Source: Bacilli bacterium
Lineage (GTDB): Bacteria; Bacillota_I; Bacilli_A; RF39; UBA660
Assembly: GCA_017434825.1 (NCBI GenBank)
Contig: JAFSGC010000020.1
Location: 42,096 to 106,095, forward strand
Length of the DNA: 64,000 nucleotides
Direction: 5' to 3'
The notes under the pieces are model-generated. The model made no database searches and was not told the origin of the DNA. It saw nothing but the letters and a program-made list of their open reading frames with translations. Numbering within the stretch: the first letter of the stretch is position 1; every line of letters begins with the position of its first letter. Below, one piece after another: positions 9,598-37,626 of the stretch. Both the position numbers and the translations under genes were made by a program.

Positions 9598-10230
9598 TTA
9601 ATTACATTCTACTCGATTTGCAATTAGAGTAGCAGTATATTCTTTGTTGTCATTGATAGTTTGTTCAACACCTTCAAGCCATACTAGAGTTACATCAGCT
9701 TTCCAATAATCTGTTTTAGCAATTCTTTTTTTTGTACTTATAGTATTAACATACTTATTTCCATCTTCAGTTGTAGGAATTCTAATAGTACCTATCTTAT
9801 CAGTAATATCCATATTACTAATAATATCTGTATAATTTTTTCCATCACTGCTTCTAGATACATTTAATAAAAGTTCTGGTGTATGTCCATCAGAATACAC
9901 AAAAACTTTATTATCAGGAAGCTTAACACTTAACTCATAACAAAAAGTCGATGTAGGATTTGTTGTTTCTAATACTACGTTCATAGTAGCCGTCCCCGTT
10001 AAGTCATGGCCAAATTCATGCGAAAAATTATTAGCTGTAGCCATAATTGACACATCATCACTTCCATTAAAAGATAAAGTATCTACTCCCTTTGAATTTA
10101 CCTCAACGTCAAAAGAACCATAGAATACCTCTCTAGCAGTAAAGTATGCATATGTTGCAATTGACACAAATACAACAGTTAAAAATATAAAAAGCACAAG
10201 CCACACTATCGTCTTATTTTTTCTATTCAT
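9598..10230 (-). CDS. secreted protein P1, CalY/TasA-type (SipW-class) signal peptide family
   Basis: Likely start is MNRKNK (ATG 10228-10230), preceded by AAGGGA. TM helix then ATYAYFTA. Two Cys only (FCYEL, C-terminal VECN). Paralogous to P2-P4. Confidence 0.6.
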   Translation of the reverse strand: MNRKNKTIVWLVLFIFLTVVFVSIATYAYFTAREVFYGSFDVEVNSKGVDTLSFNGSDDVSIMATANNFSHEFGHDLTGTATMNVVLETTNPTSTFCYELSVKLPDNKVFVYSDGHTPELLLNVSRSSDGKNYTDIISNMDITDKIGTIRIPTTEDGNKYVNTISTKKRIAKTDYWKADVTLVWLEGVEQTINDNKEYTATLIANRVECN

Positions 10231-10240
10231 AATCAATCCC

Positions 10241-10891
10241 TTAACATGTAACATTCGTTACATCTACTCTACTTGAGTATTCTTTATTATATATTGTTTG
10301 TACTACATTTAAATTATATACAGTTACAGTAACGGTATAAGTTTTTGTCACTTCAGTTCCTGGAGACGAAATACTTAGTCCACTTACTAAAGTAGTTTGC
10401 TTACTACTATTTAGTTTTCCAATTAAAGTATCTATTTTAGTTTCAGTAAAAACAGTAACTCCTGTTTCATCAGTAATTTTAATTGTATATTCACTAAGCC
10501 CCGCACTACTTGCAGCCGAAGATGGCACATATGTAGTAGCACTAGTATCTGTCCAAGTAAAATCAAACGTACATACTCCAGGAGTTGTTGCGTTACCTGC
10601 AAATAACTGTACATAAATATATTCAGAATCAGAATCTCCAATTGTTTTATTATCTGAACTTGCATCCGTATTTAACATATCAGCAGAAGTAACCTCAACA
10701 TCTAAAGTCCCTTCAGTATAAGCAGTAAATACAGGAATCCAAGAATCACTTACAGTTGCTGTAATATTTAATCCTGTAGAACCAGTAGTGTCCGCTGTAA
10801 AATAAGCATAAGTAAAAGAGCTAACCATAATTAGCAATACTAACATTGACGAAACAATTGAAACTATTGATTTACCATTACTCTTTGTCAT
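10241..10891 (-). CDS. secreted protein P2, CalY/TasA-type signal peptide family
   Basis: N-terminal TM then FTYAYFTAD. Two Cys only (GVCTFDFTW and the final residue, NVTC). VYNLNVVQ motif. Confidence 0.65.
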   Translation of the reverse strand: MTKSNGKSIVSIVSSMLVLLIMVSSFTYAYFTADTTGSTGLNITATVSDSWIPVFTAYTEGTLDVEVTSADMLNTDASSDNKTIGDSDSEYIYVQLFAGNATTPGVCTFDFTWTDTSATTYVPSSAASSAGLSEYTIKITDETGVTVFTETKIDTLIGKLNSSKQTTLVSGLSISSPGTEVTKTYTVTVTVYNLNVVQTIYNKEYSSRVDVTNVTC

Positions 10892-10953
10892 AACTTCCTA
10901 CCCTGTAAATATAATATCACAACTTACCAATTTAGAGCAATATTTATTGCAAT

Positions 10954-10986
10954 AAAAAAACGACCCATAAGAGGTCGAATTTTTTA
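10954..10986 (-). terminator. rho-independent (bidirectional-looking) terminator after P3
   Basis: Stem cgacc/ggtcg (10961-10965, 10972-10976) flanked by an A-run and a T-run. Confidence 0.6.
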
Positions 10987-11006
10987 TTTTGATATTTAAA
11001 GATAAC

Positions 11007-11675
11007 CTAGCAAACTACGTTCTTAACACTGAAGTTACCAGCAAAAGTCTTATCAGCTAAACCAGATTGGTCAACAGCTAAGTTATAGAATTTTGCAGTA
11101 AATGTGTATACAGAAGTAGTAGCTGTTTTACTATTACTCCAAATAACTGCATCATTTACAATTGTAGCTTCAGTAGCAATGTCTGCAATGTCAGCAAAAT
11201 CAGTTTCACCTTCTGCAGTATTCTCAATAGCTACTGTACCGTTTGTAGTATTAGTTGTTTCACTATTTTCAACAGCATAGCTAATTGTAAATTCATTTAA
11301 ACCAGCAGCACCATTACTATGTGCAGTATAAGCATCTCCAGTCCATTTGTAAACAATGTCATAAGTACAAGACATTGCAGTACCTTCTGCAGCAGATGCG
11401 AATGAAACAGTTAATTTACCAGTATCAGTATCAACTGGGCTACCATCGTTTTTAGCTTGTGCAGCTAACATTAAGTCAGCAGTAATATCTAATTCAATTG
11501 GATCATCAGATGATGCAATGAATGATGAACTTGCTGGTTCAGTAGTAGCAGTTAAGTTTAATCCTGCTCCAACATCTTGAGTACCTGCGAAGTATGCGAA
11601 TGTAGCTCCAACTACTGCAACTAATAAAGTAGCAACTGCGATAACTGTTAATAATAAAGTATTTCTCTTTTCCAT
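11007..11675 (-). CDS. secreted protein P3, CalY/TasA-type signal peptide family (candidate major subunit)
   Basis: MEKRNTLLLTVIAVATLLVAVVGATFAYFAGTQD closely resembles the B. cereus CalY signal (GGGTFAYFSD). Two Cys only (MSCTYDIVYKW and the final residue, NVVC). FYNLAVDQ motif. Has its own promoter-like region and terminator. Confidence 0.7.
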   Translation of the reverse strand: MEKRNTLLLTVIAVATLLVAVVGATFAYFAGTQDVGAGLNLTATTEPASSSFIASSDDPIELDITADLMLAAQAKNDGSPVDTDTGKLTVSFASAAEGTAMSCTYDIVYKWTGDAYTAHSNGAAGLNEFTISYAVENSETTNTTNGTVAIENTAEGETDFADIADIATEATIVNDAVIWSNSKTATTSVYTFTAKFYNLAVDQSGLADKTFAGNFSVKNVVC

Positions 11676-11759
11676 TTCTTTGTTATCTCCTTTCTATTAT
11701 AAATATTATCATATCATGTCGTATTTTAGCAAGTATTTTTAACACTAATTTAACTTTAA

Positions 11760-12431
11760 TTAACAAACAACATTAGAAACTGTCAAGTGTGCGTTATAAC
11801 TCTTACCAGTAATGTCATCTTGATCTGCTGGCAAAGAATAAAAATTAAGCACAAAATTCCAAGTTGCAGTCGTTGCAGTTAACGATTTACTATAGATTTC
11901 GGCACCAGTAACCACCTTGGCTTTTCTGCCAACAGTACCAGCACTTCCAGACCATGTAAAGTCGGTTAAATTAGTTTCATTTAAAGTAGTCACTGTATAT
12001 GTGTGACCTGAAGTATCCCCACTAACACTTTGGGTTCCTTTAAGAGATAACTCATATTTATAATCACTATTAAACGTCATTGAAGGAACTGTATATTGAG
12101 TTGTACTATCCCACACCAATTCAATATCATAAGTACAATGTACCACAGAATCTTCACTCGAAGAAGATAATAATGCAATTACTTTTCCATTATCGGTAAC
12201 CGCCGGAGTTGTACTAGCGACTGCCATATCTTCCGCACTAACGTTAAGAGCAATTTGATCAGCAGTATACGCAGTAAAACTAGCAGGAGCATCAGTTTCT
12301 GCTCCAACAGTTAAACCATTACCTAAATTTTGATTTCCAGAAAAGTAAGCGTATGTTGCACTAACAGTTACTAACAAAAGCATTAATAAGGCAAGGCCGG
12401 TTACTACTATATTTGTTTTACTCATTTTCAT
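11760..12431 (-). CDS. secreted protein P4, CalY/TasA-type signal peptide family
   Basis: TM then ATYAYFSGNQ. Two Cys only (VHCTYDIELVW and the final residue, NVVC). FYSLPADQ motif. Confidence 0.65.
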   Translation of the reverse strand: MKMSKTNIVVTGLALLMLLLVTVSATYAYFSGNQNLGNGLTVGAETDAPASFTAYTADQIALNVSAEDMAVASTTPAVTDNGKVIALLSSSSEDSVVHCTYDIELVWDSTTQYTVPSMTFNSDYKYELSLKGTQSVSGDTSGHTYTVTTLNETNLTDFTWSGSAGTVGRKAKVVTGAEIYSKSLTATTATWNFVLNFYSLPADQDDITGKSYNAHLTVSNVVC

Positions 12432-12447
12432 ATTTAAAACCTCCCTA

Positions 12448-13545
12448 CTATGCTAGTGCAATTCCTAACGTCTTACCATCACTATTTAAAGTTAATTTTA
12501 AATTTAGTGATTGCGTCGTTAACGAATCTATTCCTGTAATTTTATATGAACCTGGGACTGTATATGCCGCTCCTGCAGCTTGAACAGATGTCGTCGTCAA
12601 CGAAGTATTATCTAATATAAATCCCGGAGTTGAATAATTAGTTAATGCAACACTTGGAAGATATGTTCCCGCAGCTGCAGAGACATCACCAAGTTTAAGA
12701 ACAGCATTTGCTGCTCCCCCTTGTATATATACAGGAGTCTTATATTCTACACCATTATAAGTAACACTTATTGTATATGTACCAGAAGGTACATTATTTA
12801 AAGTATACGCTCCTGTAGATGCTGTTGTTGATGTAATTTTATTATTATGGAAGCTCACTTTAGCTCCGCTTACAGCAGTTCCTGAAGAATCAACTACAGT
12901 ACCACTTATGTTGAAAAAAGATTTACTAACTTTGGTTTCACTAGTTGTTGTAACACCAATATAAACTATTTTATCATCATATTTTTCTGGAGTATCAATA
13001 TCAATCCACAATTTTAAAGCATACTTTGCACTGGCAGATCCTGTAGCAAATGTACCATAATCAAGAAAATAAGTCGAATTAAAAATATTACTAGAATCAA
13101 CATAAGATAATGGTAAATCAGCAATAGACACAGGCCCTACAATTGGTTCAGAAGAAATTACATCTCCACTCATTGTATATAATGCAACTCTAATATATTC
13201 TAAAGGTATTAAATCTGAAGTGCTATACCCCGTAGGAATTGAAGCTGTACTATATCCTACATTAATTCTATAAAAAACGCTATACACATTGTTTTTAGAA
13301 AAAGATATTTTCGCAGCATACTCAGAACCTTGAGCAAGACCATCTTCATCAGTCATCGAAGTAAGTGTAAACGATGCTGAACTTATAGTTGCAGATGAAG
13401 TCAAATCACTCGTAGTAACAACAACGGCATTTGCATTAACTCTTGAACGAGTTACGTAAGAATAAGACACGCCAAAAGAAAGACACAAAAAAGAAATTAG
13501 TGCCAATATTACCACAAGGATTGGAGCATATCGATTATTCTTCAT
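12448..13545 (-). CDS. larger secreted protein P5 of the same locus, with a divergent signal and a carboxypeptidase-regulatory-like beta-sandwich segment
   Basis: TM then VSYSYVTRS. The segment ISGTVVDSSGTAVSGAKVSFHNN...GAYTLNNVPSGTYTISV is typical of CarboxypepD_reg-like domains. No Cys outside the signal peptide. Confidence 0.55.
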   Translation of the reverse strand: MKNNRYAPILVVILALISFLCLSFGVSYSYVTRSRVNANAVVVTTSDLTSSATISSASFTLTSMTDEDGLAQGSEYAAKISFSKNNVYSVFYRINVGYSTASIPTGYSTSDLIPLEYIRVALYTMSGDVISSEPIVGPVSIADLPLSYVDSSNIFNSTYFLDYGTFATGSASAKYALKLWIDIDTPEKYDDKIVYIGVTTTSETKVSKSFFNISGTVVDSSGTAVSGAKVSFHNNKITSTTASTGAYTLNNVPSGTYTISVTYNGVEYKTPVYIQGGAANAVLKLGDVSAAAGTYLPSVALTNYSTPGFILDNTSLTTTSVQAAGAAYTVPGSYKITGIDSLTTQSLNLKLTLNSDGKTLGIALA

Positions 13546-31860: not shown

Positions 31861-31934
31861 TGGTGCCGAATACAAGAATTGAACTTGTAGCTGATGCTTA
31901 CCATGCATCTGTTTTGCCATTAAACTAATTCGGC
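31861..31934 (-). tRNA. tRNA-Thr (anticodon GGT)
   Basis: 74-nt cloverleaf: acceptor GCCGAAT/ATTCGGC, anticodon stem GATGC/GCATC with loop ATGGTAA, T-arm ACAAG-TTCAATT-CTTGT, encoded CCA. Confidence 0.9.
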
Positions 31935-32161
31935 TTCTTATAATTATTATATCGTATATTGTATTTAAATTAAATTATTTTATTAATATAATGTATATTA
32001 TTTGTAATCCCCACCATAATATTAATGTAATAACGAAAATGTTATTACATTAATATAGATAGAGCCACCTTAAAGTGGCTCTTTTTATGTAAATTTTCAA
32101 CTTTAAATAGCTTATATAATTAAAGAATGCTATAATTAACTTATGATAAGGAGTTGATAAT

Positions 32162-32659
32162 ATGCGTGATGCAATCGGAAGTACATGGGTATTTGCTTTA
32201 GTTATAGTATTCACTTTAATATTTTCTGGATTTCTTGTTTTAGCTTTATCATATTCAAGAGCATATAAAGTTAAAAATGAAATGACATCAATTATTGAAC
32301 GATATGAAGGCATTACAACAAATGACAATTTGAACGGTCTAGGTTCAATCGGAATTATTAATCAGTATCTTCAAAACTCTAAATATAAAGCTCAAGGAAA
32401 ATGTGAGTATGGGGATTATGCCACGAACGATTTAGATCCTACTAAAATAGAACTAGTCACTCAAAGCAACGCCCACAAAAACTTTTATTACTGCATAAAA
32501 GTAAATCATAACGCCAAACAATGTAGCACAAGATTTACCATAACTGTTTTCTACAACTTTAACCTACCAATATTAGGTCAACTAGGTAAATACCAAATAA
32601 GTGGACAAACGAACGAAGTTCATGACGCCTATATTTTAGGAACACCAATCTCATGTTAA
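32162..32659 (+). CDS. hypothetical secreted/membrane-anchored protein (TadE-like N-terminus, or a distant relative of P1-P5)
   Basis: 165 aa with good RBS (AAGGAG). N-terminal TM then ALSYSRAY. VFYNFNLP motif; the final residue is Cys (PISC). Confidence 0.5.
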   Translation: MRDAIGSTWVFALVIVFTLIFSGFLVLALSYSRAYKVKNEMTSIIERYEGITTNDNLNGLGSIGIINQYLQNSKYKAQGKCEYGDYATNDLDPTKIELVTQSNAHKNFYYCIKVNHNAKQCSTRFTITVFYNFNLPILGQLGKYQISGQTNEVHDAYILGTPISC

Positions 32660-32698
32660 ATGAGATTTTTATTTTGAAAAAAATATATATCAAGGCAC

Positions 32699-32720
32699 AA
32701 AAAAACCTCATTACTGAGGT
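32699..32720 (-). terminator. terminator of the minus-strand tRNA operon (bidirectional-looking)
   Basis: Stem acctca/tgaggt (32705-32710, 32715-32720) with a T-run on the minus strand. Confidence 0.6.
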
Positions 32721-32733
32721 GTTATTTGCTTTC

Positions 32734-32809
<76 letters not shown>

Positions 32810-32813
32810 ATAA

Positions 32814-32890
32814 TGGCGGTCCGTACGGGATTTGAACCCGTGATCTCTTGCGTGACAGGCAAGCGTGATAGGCCACTACACTAACGGACC
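32814..32890 (-). tRNA. tRNA-Asp (anticodon GTC)
   Basis: GGTCCGTTAGTGTAGTGG...CTTGC-CTGTCAC-GCAAG...GGTTCAAATCC...GGACCGCCA; 77 nt. Confidence 0.95.
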
Positions 32891-32892
32891 AT

Positions 32893-32970
<78 letters not shown>

Positions 32971-32982
32971 ATAACTTTTAAA

Positions 32983-33075
32983 TGGCGGGGGAAAAGGGAT
33001 TCGAACCCCTGCGCCGGTTACCCGACCTCCTGGTTTTCAAGACCAGTCCCTTCAACCAGACTTGGGTATTCCCCC
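32983..33075 (-). tRNA. tRNA-Ser (anticodon TGA)
   Basis: 93-nt class II tRNA with a long variable arm. Anticodon arm CTGGT-CTTGAAA-ACCAG, T-loop GGTTCGAATCC. Confidence 0.9.
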
Positions 33076-33094
33076 ATTTGTTTGGAACAATATG

Positions 33095-33124
33095 ATTATA
33101 GCATAGTCTAAAATGTATTGTCAA
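33095..33124 (-). promoter_or_regulatory. sigma-A-type promoter of the tRNA Ser-Met-Asp-Phe operon
   Basis: Minus strand: TTGACA (33119-33124), 18-nt spacer, TATAAT (33095-33100), about 20 nt upstream of tRNA-Ser. Confidence 0.65.
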
Positions 33125-33147
33125 TCAAAATATTAATAAAAAAATGC

Positions 33148-33176
33148 TTGCAATTACAATATAAACAAGTTATAAT
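33148..33176 (+). promoter_or_regulatory. sigma-A-type promoter of tRNA-Leu
   Basis: TTGCAA (33148-33153), 17-nt spacer, TATAAT (33171-33176). Divergent from the tRNA operon promoter. Confidence 0.65.
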
Positions 33177-33207
33177 TAAATAGTCTTAATTAATTAAGAC
33201 AGTGCCT

Positions 33208-33296
33208 GCCCGAGTGGCGGAATAGGTAGACGCACAGGACTTAAAATCCTGCGGGCATTAAAACCCGTGCCGGTTCAAGTCCGGCCTCGGGCACCA
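33208..33296 (+). tRNA. tRNA-Leu (anticodon TAA)
   Basis: GCCCGAGTGGCGGAATAGGTAGACGC...GGACTTAAAATCC..., long variable arm, GGTTCAAGTCC, CTCGGGCACCA; 89 nt. Confidence 0.95.
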
Positions 33297-33771: not shown

Positions 33772-34005
33772 GTGATTGACATGGAAGATAAAATTATAGA
33801 ATTAGTAGAAAAAATTAGACCATATTTAAATATGGATGGCGGAGATATTGAATATATAAAATATGAAGATGGATACGTATACATCAAACTTATTGGAGCT
33901 TGCAGTGACTGTATGTTTCAAGATAGCACAATTAATGATGGGATTTTAACATTCTTTAAAAATGAAATTCCAGAAATTAAAGGTGTAATAAACGTTAGTA
34001 TATAA
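33772..34005 (+). CDS. NifU C-terminal-domain (Nfu/YutI-like) Fe-S protein
   Basis: IRPYLNMDGGDIEYI...GACSDCMF (CxxC) is the Nfu-type motif. The start is probably the ATG at 33781. Confidence 0.75.
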   Translation: MIDMEDKIIELVEKIRPYLNMDGGDIEYIKYEDGYVYIKLIGACSDCMFQDSTINDGILTFFKNEIPEIKGVINVSI

Positions 34006-34912
34006 GCCAATTTATTTTTTCTAATTTAGCATATAGTGAAATTTCATTATATGCTTTTCTTATGAAATTTTCATAGTTATCTACCTTACTAATAATTTTA
34101 ATTAAGCATTCTGAATCTTGTTTCTTATTTACTATTTTTTCATAACAATCAAAATAGTAAGATGGATATAAAAGTCTAGCAAATAACATATTATAAGAAT
34201 ATTGAGTTAACGATACACTTTTTAAATAAGTTTGTAGTTCTAAAAAAGCATCAGTCTCATTATAAAAATATAATGATTTTATATACTCTGCTACATCTCG
34301 AACTTCTAAATCAAAGATAAAAGTTAAAGGATTTGCATAATTTAAATTAGTATTAGGATAATATATTCTTCGATGGGATAAGACAACATTATCATTTTCA
34401 CTTATGTTATAAAGTTGTGATATTTTAGTTACATAATAAATGGCATTTTCAGTAAGACCTATATAATAATCAATCGATTTTCTAACTACTCTATCAACTT
34501 CCACTTCATTTAATTGACTTTCAATATAATCAATCTTTTTGCTCCACAGATTCGCCCAATCATTACGATATAACTTTGTCTTTATAGAAGACAATTTTGT
34601 TTTTTTGTTTTGTTCTATTATTTCAACGATAGATAGCTCTCTATCTTTATTAGCTACTTTTAAAAGAATATAATTTACATCCTCTATTTTAGTTATAACC
34701 TCTTGCTTGTTATTTAAAATAATATCATGACAAATAACATTCTTTTCTTTAAGTTGTCTACTACACTCAACTATTTCCTTTAGATCATCTATTGTACGAT
34801 TGCAAAAAACAAAATAATAATCAGAATCATCCAAAATAAAATGATAAGCATCTCCTTCAATAAAAAGCTTATCAAGTTTTAATGAATAATAATATTCTAT
34901 AGTTTGTTTCAT
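33995..34912 (-). CDS. CotS/YutH-like spore-coat kinase-fold protein
   Basis: 305 aa. Sits beside the NifU-like gene and near the YutD- and YunB-like genes, mirroring the B. subtilis yutI-yutH...yutD...yunB neighbourhood. Direct sequence similarity is only loosely recognised. Confidence 0.4.
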   Translation of the reverse strand: MKQTIEYYYSLKLDKLFIEGDAYHFILDDSDYYFVFCNRTIDDLKEIVECSRQLKEKNVICHDIILNNKQEVITKIEDVNYILLKVANKDRELSIVEIIEQNKKTKLSSIKTKLYRNDWANLWSKKIDYIESQLNEVEVDRVVRKSIDYYIGLTENAIYYVTKISQLYNISENDNVVLSHRRIYYPNTNLNYANPLTFIFDLEVRDVAEYIKSLYFYNETDAFLELQTYLKSVSLTQYSYNMLFARLLYPSYYFDCYEKIVNKKQDSECLIKIISKVDNYENFIRKAYNEISLYAKLEKINWLIY

Positions 34913-36118: not shown

Positions 36119-36955
36119 CTATAAAACTGTTAATGTAATTATTAATATAACCATTCCTACTGTAGCTATAATTGATAAAATAAATAATATATCAATATAA
36201 CCATTACCCGTAGATAATGCTGGTTTCGGATGATTATGTTCATACACCGCTTTATCTAACAAATAATTTTTATTAATTGCATTCGCATTAATATCAAAAT
36301 AATTATATACTTCTTTATTAACTTCATCAAGCTCATCTGAGTTCATCGCTTTAATATCCTCTAAAGCATAATTTAAAATTTCATAAGCTTCCAAGTTCAA
36401 GGTTTCTTTTGGTTTAGAAACCACTTTCTTTTCATTTTCTGCCATTTGTTTATCAAAATAACTGACAACTTCAAATGGATCTTTAGTCATCATAAAATTA
36501 TATGAAACAAGTAAAGTATTACTTGCATATGGACTAAATAATAAGCTACGGAAATCATTAACTTCTTGTTCAGATAATTTTAAAGTAACTTTCTTTTTGG
36601 CAAACATATCAACAAGCATTTTTTGAATTTTCAAGAAATTATGCTCAGTTTCATTTTCATAAAATCTTTGCAAAGATCTCTTAAATTCATTTAAATCTTC
36701 ATCAGAATACCCATACTTTTTCATGTTCATATTTAAAGATACTTCATTATTAAGATAAAATGGATTTAAAATATCTAACTCATCATAAATTAAAGTTAAT
36801 AATCTTATTACTACCACGAAGAAAGAATTATACTTAATTCCTTCAGGATTATCTTTACTACTTAAGTACTCATTTAATGCACATGTAAAAGCCTCATTTA
36901 CAAAAATGCTTTTTTCCATACTCTCACCTATTATTAAGTATAGCACAAATATCAC
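36119..36955 (-). CDS. hypothetical protein with C-terminal TM anchor
   Basis: 278-aa ORF. Its start overlaps the stop of the upstream YunB-like gene by 4 nt. Tail GYIDILFILSIIATVGMVILIITLTVL. Confidence 0.5.
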   Translation of the reverse strand: MIFVLYLIIGESMEKSIFVNEAFTCALNEYLSSKDNPEGIKYNSFFVVVIRLLTLIYDELDILNPFYLNNEVSLNMNMKKYGYSDEDLNEFKRSLQRFYENETEHNFLKIQKMLVDMFAKKKVTLKLSEQEVNDFRSLLFSPYASNTLLVSYNFMMTKDPFEVVSYFDKQMAENEKKVVSKPKETLNLEAYEILNYALEDIKAMNSDELDEVNKEVYNYFDINANAINKNYLLDKAVYEHNHPKPALSTGNGYIDILFILSIIATVGMVILIITLTVL

Positions 36956-37626
36956 TCAATTGGAACATCAAAAATTGAACTATTCGAAGACAAATAATTT
37001 CCATAAAACTCAGGAATTCTTCCATTGATAATTTTCGAAGAAATTAACAAATCATAAGATACACGCTTTCTTTCACTACTCACTGGAGTTATTATTCTTC
37101 CCTCAATAGTAATTTTAATATAGGCCTCTACTAAAGCATTATTAAGACCATAATTAGTTATTTTGGTATATACATTAGTTAAAATGGAATTTATATAATT
37201 CATTTTAATTGTTATTTTAGGTCCTAGATTACTTAAAAAGACACTTTTACTACCTATTAAAAATGGGATTTCATAAACTATTCCAGTACTCAAATTTGAA
37301 TTGGGATTTAAGCTACTTTTTATTTTATTAGAAACAACATTTAATAGTTCATAAGATTTATTTAAATCATAATCAACATAAAGAATTTCCCCTTCGGAAT
37401 TCTTATAAATTTCTAAAATGTCATTAATATCATTTTTACTCATCGAATTATAAACCATATCATTCAACTTAGAATATATTTCTTTTTGAAAATATTCTTC
37501 AGAAATCAAATTAACTTTACTAGCGGTATACTTACTATAAGTTTTAAACATTATCAAACTAAAAAAAAGAATCAAAAGAAGATTAATTATATAATAATAT
37601 TTTCTTTTAATTCTTTTTCTAATCAT
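36952..37626 (-). CDS. yunB: sporulation protein YunB-like
   Basis: 224 aa, N-terminal TM. Size, architecture and yut/yun-like neighbourhood fit YunB. Ends in TGA. Confidence 0.45.
   Translation of the reverse strand: MIRKRIKRKYYYIINLLLILFFSLIMFKTYSKYTASKVNLISEEYFQKEIYSKLNDMVYNSMSKNDINDILEIYKNSEGEILYVDYDLNKSYELLNVVSNKIKSSLNPNSNLSTGIVYEIPFLIGSKSVFLSNLGPKITIKMNYINSILTNVYTKITNYGLNNALVEAYIKITIEGRIITPVSSERKRVSYDLLISSKIINGRIPEFYGNYLSSNSSIFDVPIE

Follow-up and report, generated by a model that had tools for sequence, protein, structure and literature searches.

A cluster of five consecutive minus-strand genes at 9598-13545 of a 64-kb stretch of chromosomal DNA from a metagenome-assembled Bacilli bacterium (contig JAFSGC010000020.1; G+C ~29%) is best explained, from the sequences of its products, as a single unit encoding Sec-exported proteins, here called P1 to P5. 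The whole 64-kb stretch is referred to below as the window, and all open reading frames (ORFs) and coordinates were read from its DNA. We propose that these proteins might assemble into a TasA-like surface fibre, built by donor-strand complementation from major, minor and anchor subunits, a reading to which we would give a probability of roughly 40%. Export of the products through a signal of the TasA/SipW type we regard as probable, given the motif and gene-linkage evidence laid out here.

The cluster is transcribed in the order P5, P4, P3, P2, P1. In each of the co-oriented ORFs we could confirm the N-terminal arrangement described in an earlier note on this DNA, in which a basic stretch and a hydrophobic helix precede a motif, here (T/S)(F/Y)(A/S)Y(F/V), and the five strings quoted there (ATYAYFTA, FTYAYFTAD, ATFAYFAGT, ATYAYFSGN and VSYSYVT) are all present as written. 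P5 (12448-13545; 365 aa) is the first gene and has a signal-like N-terminus with the motif VSYSYV. P4 (11760-12431; 223 aa) carries SATYAYFSG, with one cysteine in HCTYDI and the other as the C-terminal residue, and P2 (10241-10891; 216 aa) carries SFTYAYFTAD, with cysteines in VCTFDF and at the C-terminal residue; both are short members of the family described below, and candidate minor subunits. P3 (11007-11675; 222 aa), identical to the NCBI protein IJO63_05360, is the candidate major subunit, combining a near-invariant N-terminus, MEKRNTLLLTVIAVATLLVAVVGATFA followed by YF, with a modelled beta-sandwich over residues 51-221. The last gene, P1 (9598-10254; 218 aa), encodes the most divergent paralogue, with the motif IATYAYFTA and cysteines in FCYEL and in a C-terminal VECN.

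Predicted signal peptides of the cluster products

The predicted signal peptide of P3 spans residues 1-27 (11595-11675, minus strand), with cleavage expected after A27, such that G lies at -5, T at -3, F at -2 and A at -1, with Y and F at +1 and +2. The products of all five genes have an n-h-c architecture with aromatics at cleavage subsites P2, P1' and P2' (positions, not the proteins), and all five, like the family as a whole, keep Gly at -5, Thr/Ser at -3 and Ala/Ser at -1. In an alignment of 104 family sequences, column entropy over P3 residues 1-27 is 0.37 bits, as compared with 2.1-2.7 elsewhere; around the predicted site, G23 is conserved at 98%, T25 at 92%, F26 at 98%, A27 at 100%, Y28 at 90% and F29 at 99%, mature position 2 (F29) being Phe in 103 of the 104. 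The signal of TasA, TWA/AF (the slash marking the cut), and that of P3, TFA/YF, follow the same small-aromatic-small, aromatic-aromatic pattern; aromatic P2 and P2' residues hinder LepB-type peptidases, and it is the endoplasmic reticulum (ER)-type SipW that cleaves the TasA pattern (PMC10269814).

Codon analysis of 98 distinct copies showed that synonymous sites are free to vary at the P3-type N-terminus while the encoded residues stay constant; conservation of the 5' end at the DNA level, as a recombination or regulatory site, is ruled out by this free synonymous variation. Matches to the signal model TIGR04088 at E<1 occur in 29 of the 104 homologues (best E 4e-4), and these sub-threshold matches span profile positions 1-27 of 34, that is, the hydrophobic core and the motif.

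Archaeal-type signal peptidase genes in related loci

A combined motif scan and phmmer search over 1.39 Mb from 86 related loci found only two signal peptidase I genes (in loci L044 and L071), both of the archaeal type, with TIGR02228 scores of 78.6 and 89.6 bits respectively, against a cut-off of 51.85. We also ran the test in reverse, with the L071 peptidase as query (929 relatives) and five of its orthologues (L090-L094) picked solely for their long contigs. All six archaeal-type peptidase genes examined in this way (L071 and L090-L094) are directly preceded by one or two co-oriented genes encoding a P3-type N-terminus, and the four peptidases scanned score 86-92 bits (86.6-92.2) on the same model. 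The N-terminus of the peptidase-adjacent products reads MEK(K/R)NT(I/V/L)LLTVIAVATLLVAVVGATFAYF, with P3 identical at 27 of its 30 positions; those products starting MEK(K/R)NT(I/V)LLTVIAVATLLVAVVGATFAYFTA are 224-259 aa long and have two cysteines. A second protein with an SFAYF motif is usually also encoded in the peptidase operon, and one short neighbour of a peptidase (L090:6658-7206) was recognised by the mature-domain profile of the P3 family alone (E 3e-7). Judged from this shared N-terminus, an archaeal-type signal peptidase I most likely has that of P3 as its cognate signal. A profile search of the PDB with the peptidase-linked family returned nothing relevant.

Several further features of these loci were observed. 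Between the genes with P3-type signals and the peptidase lies a gene for a Cys-rich protein (19-31 Cys, 490-870 aa; L090:7306-9897, L091:8253-9899, L092:8215-9894, L094:4421-5902 and L071:4487-7087), which begins M(N/E)..NLQEQYALLE.E and combines a single membrane helix with a cadherin-like beta-sandwich and low-complexity stretches resembling SD repeats; it is possibly an anchor or assembly factor. The region L044:4611-9912 holds a second kind of archaeal-type peptidase, of 398 aa, with its catalytic domain (aa 279-394) behind a long hydrophobic N-terminal region; it adjoins a P3-type cluster, the proteins flanking it start ...VGFAAAAYNQTLNVTGT and ...VGYAVYNQGLNLTGK, and it is reminiscent of the multi-pass signal peptidase I reported for AbpX loci (10.64898/2026.01.04.697558). 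At L090:18693-20136, ~8 kb from the peptidase operon, a bAvd-like gene is followed by a reverse transcriptase (RVT_1), a pair typical of a diversity-generating retroelement.

A protein family of uncultured gut Bacilli

A word-indexed search with P3 returned 1258 relatives, none of them with a Pfam domain; their overall identity to P3 is ~35-50%, with residues 1-29 more than 90% conserved in the 104 aligned sequences. Since both this search and a genome scan (below) lean on the conserved N-terminus, we repeated the search with a profile built from 26 sequences and restricted to the mature domain (residues 31-222), scoring it against 1.84 billion representative proteins, which gave 1032 relatives at E<=1e-3 (as clusters at 50% identity) and 457 at E<=1e-10. 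The domain starts at residue ~30-45 in nearly all of the 150 hits listed and, in 116 of the 120 newly listed, a basic stretch, a hydrophobic stretch and (T/S/A)(F/Y)(A/S/G)(Y/F/W)(F/Y/I/L) stand directly before it. The P3-type hydrophobic core is found in only 23 of these 120, and varies freely in the rest, as expected for a cleaved signal; the universal feature across the family is the motif and its position, not the sequence of the core.

Many members are 300-1159 aa long with C-terminal extensions, and one long member has a Big_2 domain and a weak MucBP match. Many of the long members (~500-1160 aa; e.g. L003:10742-12544, P0134, P0141, P0143, P0145, P0150, P0164 and P0191) end in (N/D)PY(T/V/L)(L/I/V)x, which could be the end of a domain, or else a sorting or attachment signal; three of those with this ending have weak matches to DUF6273.

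No Pfam or NCBIfam model covers the mature domain of P1-P4, and a literature search turned up nothing specific on either the motif or the family. Across species-representative genomes, the genome scan gave 437 matching stretches, of which 80 loci were returned with record titles; these are nearly all uncultured Bacilli, 'Mycoplasma sp. CAG:472', uncultured Tenericutes, or Candidatus Onthocola or Caccenecus (Bacilli incertae sedis), their sources being the guts of humans, goats, sheep, rabbits and chickens. Some loci (L014, L018, L022, L023, L026, L029, L035, L037, L040 and L041) were deposited as 'uncultured Muribaculaceae bacterium' (Bacteroidota); these bins are probably mislabelled, because their gene content and the distribution of the family are Bacilli-like. 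Hundreds of metagenome sequences represent some of the family clusters. Uncharacterised and annotated in no database, the family occurs only in uncultured gut Bacilli, and is abundant there.

Four paralogues with a conserved cysteine pair

P2, P3 and P4 are mutually 30-36% identical (P4 versus P3, 34-36%) and share the FYNL..DQ block that had been ascribed to them. P1 aligns with the family profile over 201 columns, at full length and with both cysteines included (hhalign probability 79%, E 1.6e-5), whereas the alignment of P5 with that profile is limited to the hydrophobic helix and motif, the N-terminal ~30 residues. The 'five tandem paralogues' of the earlier note are therefore better described as four paralogues (P1-P4) and one protein, P5, with the same kind of N-terminus and a mature part unrelated in profile comparison.

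Each of P1-P4 has exactly two cysteines, as had been claimed, the second being the last residue in P2-P4 and the next to last in P1, and both are invariant in the 104-sequence alignment. The label 'terminal' for the second cysteine holds in the sense of near the C-terminus and is not strict, since homologues often have a tail of 1-12 residues after it. Amongst 176 full-length family ORFs from the 86 loci, 151 have exactly two cysteines, and in 163 of the 176 the last cysteine lies 12 residues or fewer from the C-terminus. In P3 the pair is formed by C103 (codon at 11367-11369, minus strand) and the C-terminal residue C222 (11010-11012, minus strand), which together with E128 are invariant; M69, Y105, F196, Y197, N198 and Q203 are more than 90% conserved. 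M69, N198, C103 and C222 make up a covarying cluster (z 3.7-4.8), which suggests that a conserved site, of a polar, metal-binding or cross-link kind, may lie close to the predicted disulfide end of the sandwich.

Structural model and coevolution of P3

An AlphaFold2 model of P3 built on the 104 sequences (mean predicted local distance difference test score, pLDDT, 83; predicted template modelling score, pTM, 0.71) has a helix at residues 3-27, a low-confidence segment at 28-50 and a high-confidence, eight-strand sandwich at 51-221. As modelled, the fold is without a recognisable solved relative, a Foldseek search of the PDB giving no match below E 0.01. Residues 31-44 fall below pLDDT 50 and the whole of 28-50 is left unplaced by the model; column entropy over this segment is nevertheless 2.1 bits, equal to that of the core strands, and residues 39-45 alternate between hydrophobic and polar, with T45 92% conserved, such that it does not look like a loose linker. 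We regard residues 39-45 (LNLTATT; 11541-11561, minus strand), a conserved, amphipathic and strand-like segment, as the candidate donor strand.

Mean-field direct-coupling analysis of 329 family sequences (effective number, Meff, 261) gave D106-N219 as the top coevolving pair (z 10.4), with C103-C222 (z 4.6) and K110-S216 (z 3.7) falling in the same i+j ~325 register. Strands 101-111 and 209-221 would therefore pair antiparallel, with the two cysteines facing each other; an intramolecular C103-C222 disulfide that pins the C-terminal strand, as was suggested at the outset from the positions of the cysteines, is likely and has the support of the coevolution register. Couplings between the N-terminal extension and the core (A43-F129, z 5.2; A30-W111, z 4.7; G31-G213, z 4.5) are, at this alignment depth, no more than suggestive of contacts, either within a chain or between chains.

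P5 and the layout of the cluster

P5 lacks the cysteine pair, its single cysteine lying inside the hydrophobic helix, and the CarboxypepD_reg-like segment reported for it is confirmed (PF13620, transthyretin-like; aa 213-278, nt 12712-12909; 46.7 bits against a cut-off of 32.3, E 4e-12). The P5 family is built from an N-domain of unknown type, CarboxypepD_reg and a C-terminal region that is LysM-like in homologues. The Pfam LysM model (PF01476) matches 7 of 18 P5 homologues (best 1.8e-7), and the family profile matches the LytE LysM repeats in the PDB (1.4e-7), and other LysM chains, at the aligned region; the P5 of the window itself has no LysM match at E<=1. With a model from an alignment of 13 sequences (pLDDT 82, pTM 0.78), Foldseek gave weak matches to modular Gram-positive pilins, adhesins, UafA, scaffoldin and FimA, with no TasA in the top 50; matches to T6, CppA, BcpA and SpaA (E 2.5e-5 to 6e-4) have template modelling (TM) scores of ~0.15 and come mostly from generic beta-sandwich modules. 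A P5-like gene is present once per locus in ~37 related loci, usually directly upstream of a P3-type gene, and some P5 homologues carry a TasA-like string after the motif (N-Q-x-V-T-T-G-T-L-x-V ... I-Q-N-x-G-S-L). We infer that P5 may be an accessory, wall-associated or base/tip protein.

Across 81 related loci the genes are co-oriented, with the common order P5-like gene, short member, one to four P3-type genes and, last, long members, short members or both; the order of the window recurs in three other loci, and many have two to four tandem P3-type copies. Within the window the intergenic gaps, in transcription order, are 16, 84 and 115 nt, and the P2 stop region and the P1 start then overlap by 14 nt (10241-10254), which suggests translational coupling of these two most downstream paralogues. 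A terminator-like G+C hairpin, followed by TTTTTTTATT, lies at 10961-10977 (minus strand) in the 115-nt gap, directly 3' of the P3 stop codon; a consensus scan found six terminator-like sites in the region, against 1.6 +/- 1.4 in shuffles, and no enrichment of promoter-like sites (32 observed, 27.6 expected from shuffles). If the post-P3 hairpin does act as a terminator, a strongly expressed major subunit with weaker read-through into the minor subunits would look like this.

A model for assembly, and comparison with known systems

We suggest that the N-termini of P1-P5 are TasA/CalY-type signals, which an archaeal/ER-type signal peptidase I encoded elsewhere in the genome would cut behind the small residue in (T/S)(F/Y)(A/S)/(Y)(F). 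P3 would then be the main structural subunit, with P4, P2 and P1 as minor paralogous subunits, and P5 most likely serving to tie the structure to the cell wall, or to start or cap it. The new N-terminus of each subunit (Y-F, then the strand at 39-45) may insert into the beta-sandwich of its neighbour, and this donor-strand complementation could build a surface fibre or matrix without the need for a dedicated ATPase or sortase, whilst the C103-C222 disulfide would staple the C-terminal strand to strand 101-111. The layout of the cluster, the hairpin after P3, the long adhesin-like members, the LysM domains in P5 homologues and the unplaced N-terminal strand are all consistent with such a fibre.

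TasA fibres form as the strand that starts where SipW cuts (residues 28-38) enters the following subunit, with TapA probably supplying the first strand (PMC9674648). A 2026 preprint extends the donor-strand mechanism to a cross-domain TasA superfamily, in whose members a jelly-roll core goes with an aromatic 'clamp' at the second mature position, and in whose loci genes for a TIGR02228 peptidase and wall anchors accompany those for major subunits, minor subunits and tip proteins; in one member, AbpX, two cysteines are predicted to lie close enough for a disulfide (10.64898/2026.01.04.697558). As features of sequence, both an aromatic at mature position 2 and a strand pattern at 39-45 are present in P3.

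With the TasA/CalY (camelysin, Pfam Peptidase_M73) and SipW/TapA system, the cluster shares the basic-hydrophobic-small-aromatic-small signal, the aromatic at mature position 2, a mature beta-sandwich of ~190-230 aa, several related subunits in one locus and, on the proposed model, no need of an ATPase or sortase; in relatives, the P3-type N-terminus is also encoded beside an ER/archaeal-type signal peptidase I. It differs in having a cysteine pair, no detectable similarity of the mature domain, no significant fold match, no peptidase or TapA-like gene in this locus, and a P1-P4 family limited to uncultured gut Bacilli. The likeness to the wider superfamily (archaeal AbpA bundling pili, AbpX, Tafi, Saci_0406 threads and CanA) lies in the logic of the locus, in a candidate N-terminal donor strand directly after the cleavage site and, for AbpX, in the two cysteines. 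AbpX and TasA, however, have a conserved acidic residue at mature position 4, where the family has S/A/T/G (position 31); moreover, the anchor candidate here is LysM-like, rather than SLH or LPXTG, and there is no profile or fold link. Chaperone-usher pilins such as FimA also have an N-terminal extension that completes the Ig-like sandwich of a neighbour, as is proposed here, and an attenuating terminator after the major-subunit gene, followed by minor subunits, and P5 matches FimA weakly (probability 0.98-0.99, TM 0.36-0.39 on the target); but ours is a Gram-positive lineage without chaperone or usher, and P1-P4 have no sequence or fold relationship to such pilins. The logic of the TasA system is thus reproduced feature by feature while every test of TasA homology made here failed; as far as can be judged, the cluster would therefore work like that system, with membership of it not shown.

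Evidence against a fibre, and alternative readings

Several results weigh against the fibre reading, amongst them the outcome of those homology tests. A relationship to TasA/CalY was not borne out, in that profile and Foldseek searches found neither sequence nor fold similarity to TasA or to any other solved fibre subunit. PF12389 is absent from P1-P5; PDB profile searches with the P3 and P5 families gave no TasA or other relevant match; and hhalign against B. subtilis TasA gave a probability of 1.3% for the P3 family and 1.5% for the P5 family, with only the signal region aligned. The TasA fibre structure 8aur_A ranks 39th for the P3 model (E 0.08, TM 0.32), although the use of a full-length monomer model may understate the likeness.

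The remaining points concern the signal and its peptidase. On TIGR04088, P1 scores 13.7 bits against a cut-off of 19 and P2-P5 have no hit; individually scanned homologues reach 11-16 bits, and most members have no hit at all. The assignment of these N-termini to the SipW class is consequently upheld by the logic of the motif and by peptidase linkage in relatives, but not by the model, whose cut-off no protein tested reaches. There is no signal peptidase of any type in the window, and none in ~1.5 kb of added sequence beyond one of its ends; the absence from the window of a SipW-type peptidase, a TapA-like gene and a sortase had been correctly noted. Archaeal-type peptidase genes lie within 10 kb of family clusters in 2 of 86 loci, no more often than random placement would give. 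Between the mature domains of the products beside the peptidase and that of the P3 family, hhalign gives a probability of 2.7%, from a 31-column, motif-level alignment only (Y-x-N-x3-D/N-Q-x5-K), and a link between them was not supported. Finally, a hydrophobic core as nearly invariant as that of P3 is unusual in a signal peptide that is discarded, and could mean that the helix is kept.

Of the other readings, that which survives best is that P1-P5 are cleaved and exported but do not polymerise, being instead monomeric, fast-evolving surface or wall-associated coat proteins or adhesins, with variable sandwiches that face host, phages and microbes, and tandem copies that provide antigenic or binding diversity. 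We consider this possible, if on balance unlikely. It accounts readily for the strong divergence of the mature domains (30-50% identity) behind a fixed N-terminus, for the two to four tandem P3-type copies at many loci, for the richness of P1-P5 in Thr, Ser and Asn, for the adhesin-type domains of the long members and for the absence of any fold likeness to known fibre subunits, and LysM in P5 homologues fits with wall association. It leaves aside the conserved, strand-like N-terminal extension that finds no place in a monomer model, the conserved aromatic at mature position 2, and a stable gene order that resembles a layout of major, minor, tip and anchor subunits; nor is it exclusive, as fibre subunits also evolve fast on their exposed faces.

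A further reading takes up the invariance of the P3 core. Here, the N-terminal helix would stay uncleaved, making these proteins type II (N-in) membrane-anchored ectoproteins, with the P3 helix packing in the membrane or in a pilin-like, pseudopilus-like core. Functional helices, that at the N-terminus of type IV pilins being one example, typically have a core held near-invariant under free synonymous change; the hydrophobic stretch of ~17-24 residues could span a membrane; weak hits link the proteins to N-terminally anchored SAG1386/EF1546 (32 of 104) and to FliL; and the window holds no peptidase. SipW substrates, for their part, share a conserved hydrophobic core, as is seen in TasA and CalY. 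What makes us doubt the uncleaved helix is that every paralogue type keeps G at -5, T/S at -3 and A/S at -1, with the core being free outside the P3 type; that the same N-terminus is tied to archaeal-type peptidase genes in six of six loci; and that there is neither a prepilin-type G/F...E motif before the helix nor a pilus ATPase or platform gene nearby. We judge it unlikely.

That the proteins are subunits of a known kind of Gram-positive pilus, whether sortase-assembled or of the type IV/competence sort, is very improbable: the weak P5 matches to T6, CppA, BcpA, SpaA and FimA, and the presence of several small paralogues beside one larger protein, are offset by the lack in P1-P5 of an LPXTG or other sorting signal, C-terminal hydrophobic tail or membrane anchor (the ends being NVVC, NVVC, NVTC, VECN and GIALA), by the absence of a sortase, prepilin peptidase, PilB/PilC or ComG among the window genes, by a conserved motif that stands after the helix rather than before it, and by the generic nature of the P5 matches. 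Both sub-types were tried as candidates and rejected, the type IV pilin or pseudopilin on leaders (MEKRN, MKMSKTN etc.) without the Gly and the Glu at +5 and on the lack of prepilin peptidase or ATPase genes in the window annotation, and the sortase pilin on the lack of an LPXTG C-terminus and of a sortase family.

Other features of the window

Upstream, the cluster is neighboured by RNase J and a small DUF2383-like gene, and downstream by a ZIP transporter, an epimerase and a patatin-like gene. The window also carries a member of the YutH-like spore coat kinase family (33995-34912) and YunB (36952-37626), and its relatives carry SpoVS, YabP, YqfD and CotJB. Since these sporulation genes are present, the small-genome gut Bacilli in question, some of which were deposited under Mycoplasma or Tenericutes, appear to have a wall and to form spores, which fits with a LysM-type wall anchor.

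At 57802-63957 (minus strand) there is a probable type VII (ESX/Ess-like) secretion locus, with a large FtsK/SpoIIIE ATPase gene that crosses the end of the window (1525 aa on longer contigs) and six small genes (~100-157 aa) beside it; two sub-threshold WXG100 matches were seen, at 59243-59560 (20.7 bits) and 58110-58415 (14.4 bits), against a cut-off of 27.3. Six tRNA genes lie at 31861-33296, those for Thr-GGT, Phe, Asp, Met and Ser-TGA on the minus strand and that for Leu-TAA on the plus strand.

Implications for the gut Bacilli

Taking the fibre reading one step further, P1-P4 might represent an undescribed class of self-assembling fibre subunits specific to uncultured gut Bacilli, one that unites a new beta-sandwich fold without a solved relative, a TasA-like signal that would be cut by an archaeal-type peptidase from another locus, a TasA-like N-terminal donor strand, a disulfide acting as a staple, tip adhesins derived from the extended domain and a LysM-type anchor; such a class could be an independent invention of the way in which TasA assembles, or a branch of the TasA superfamily that has diverged beyond recognition. 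We put this forward only tentatively. The near-invariant, 30-residue N-terminus of P3 is, for its part, ready for use as a tag with which to find both substrates and peptidase in metagenomes.

If P1-P5 do form a surface fibre or matrix, that structure would rank among the main determinants of attachment, of aggregation, and of how these gut Bacilli present themselves to host immunity and to phages, and it would extend SipW-processed, donor-strand fibres to a new fold.

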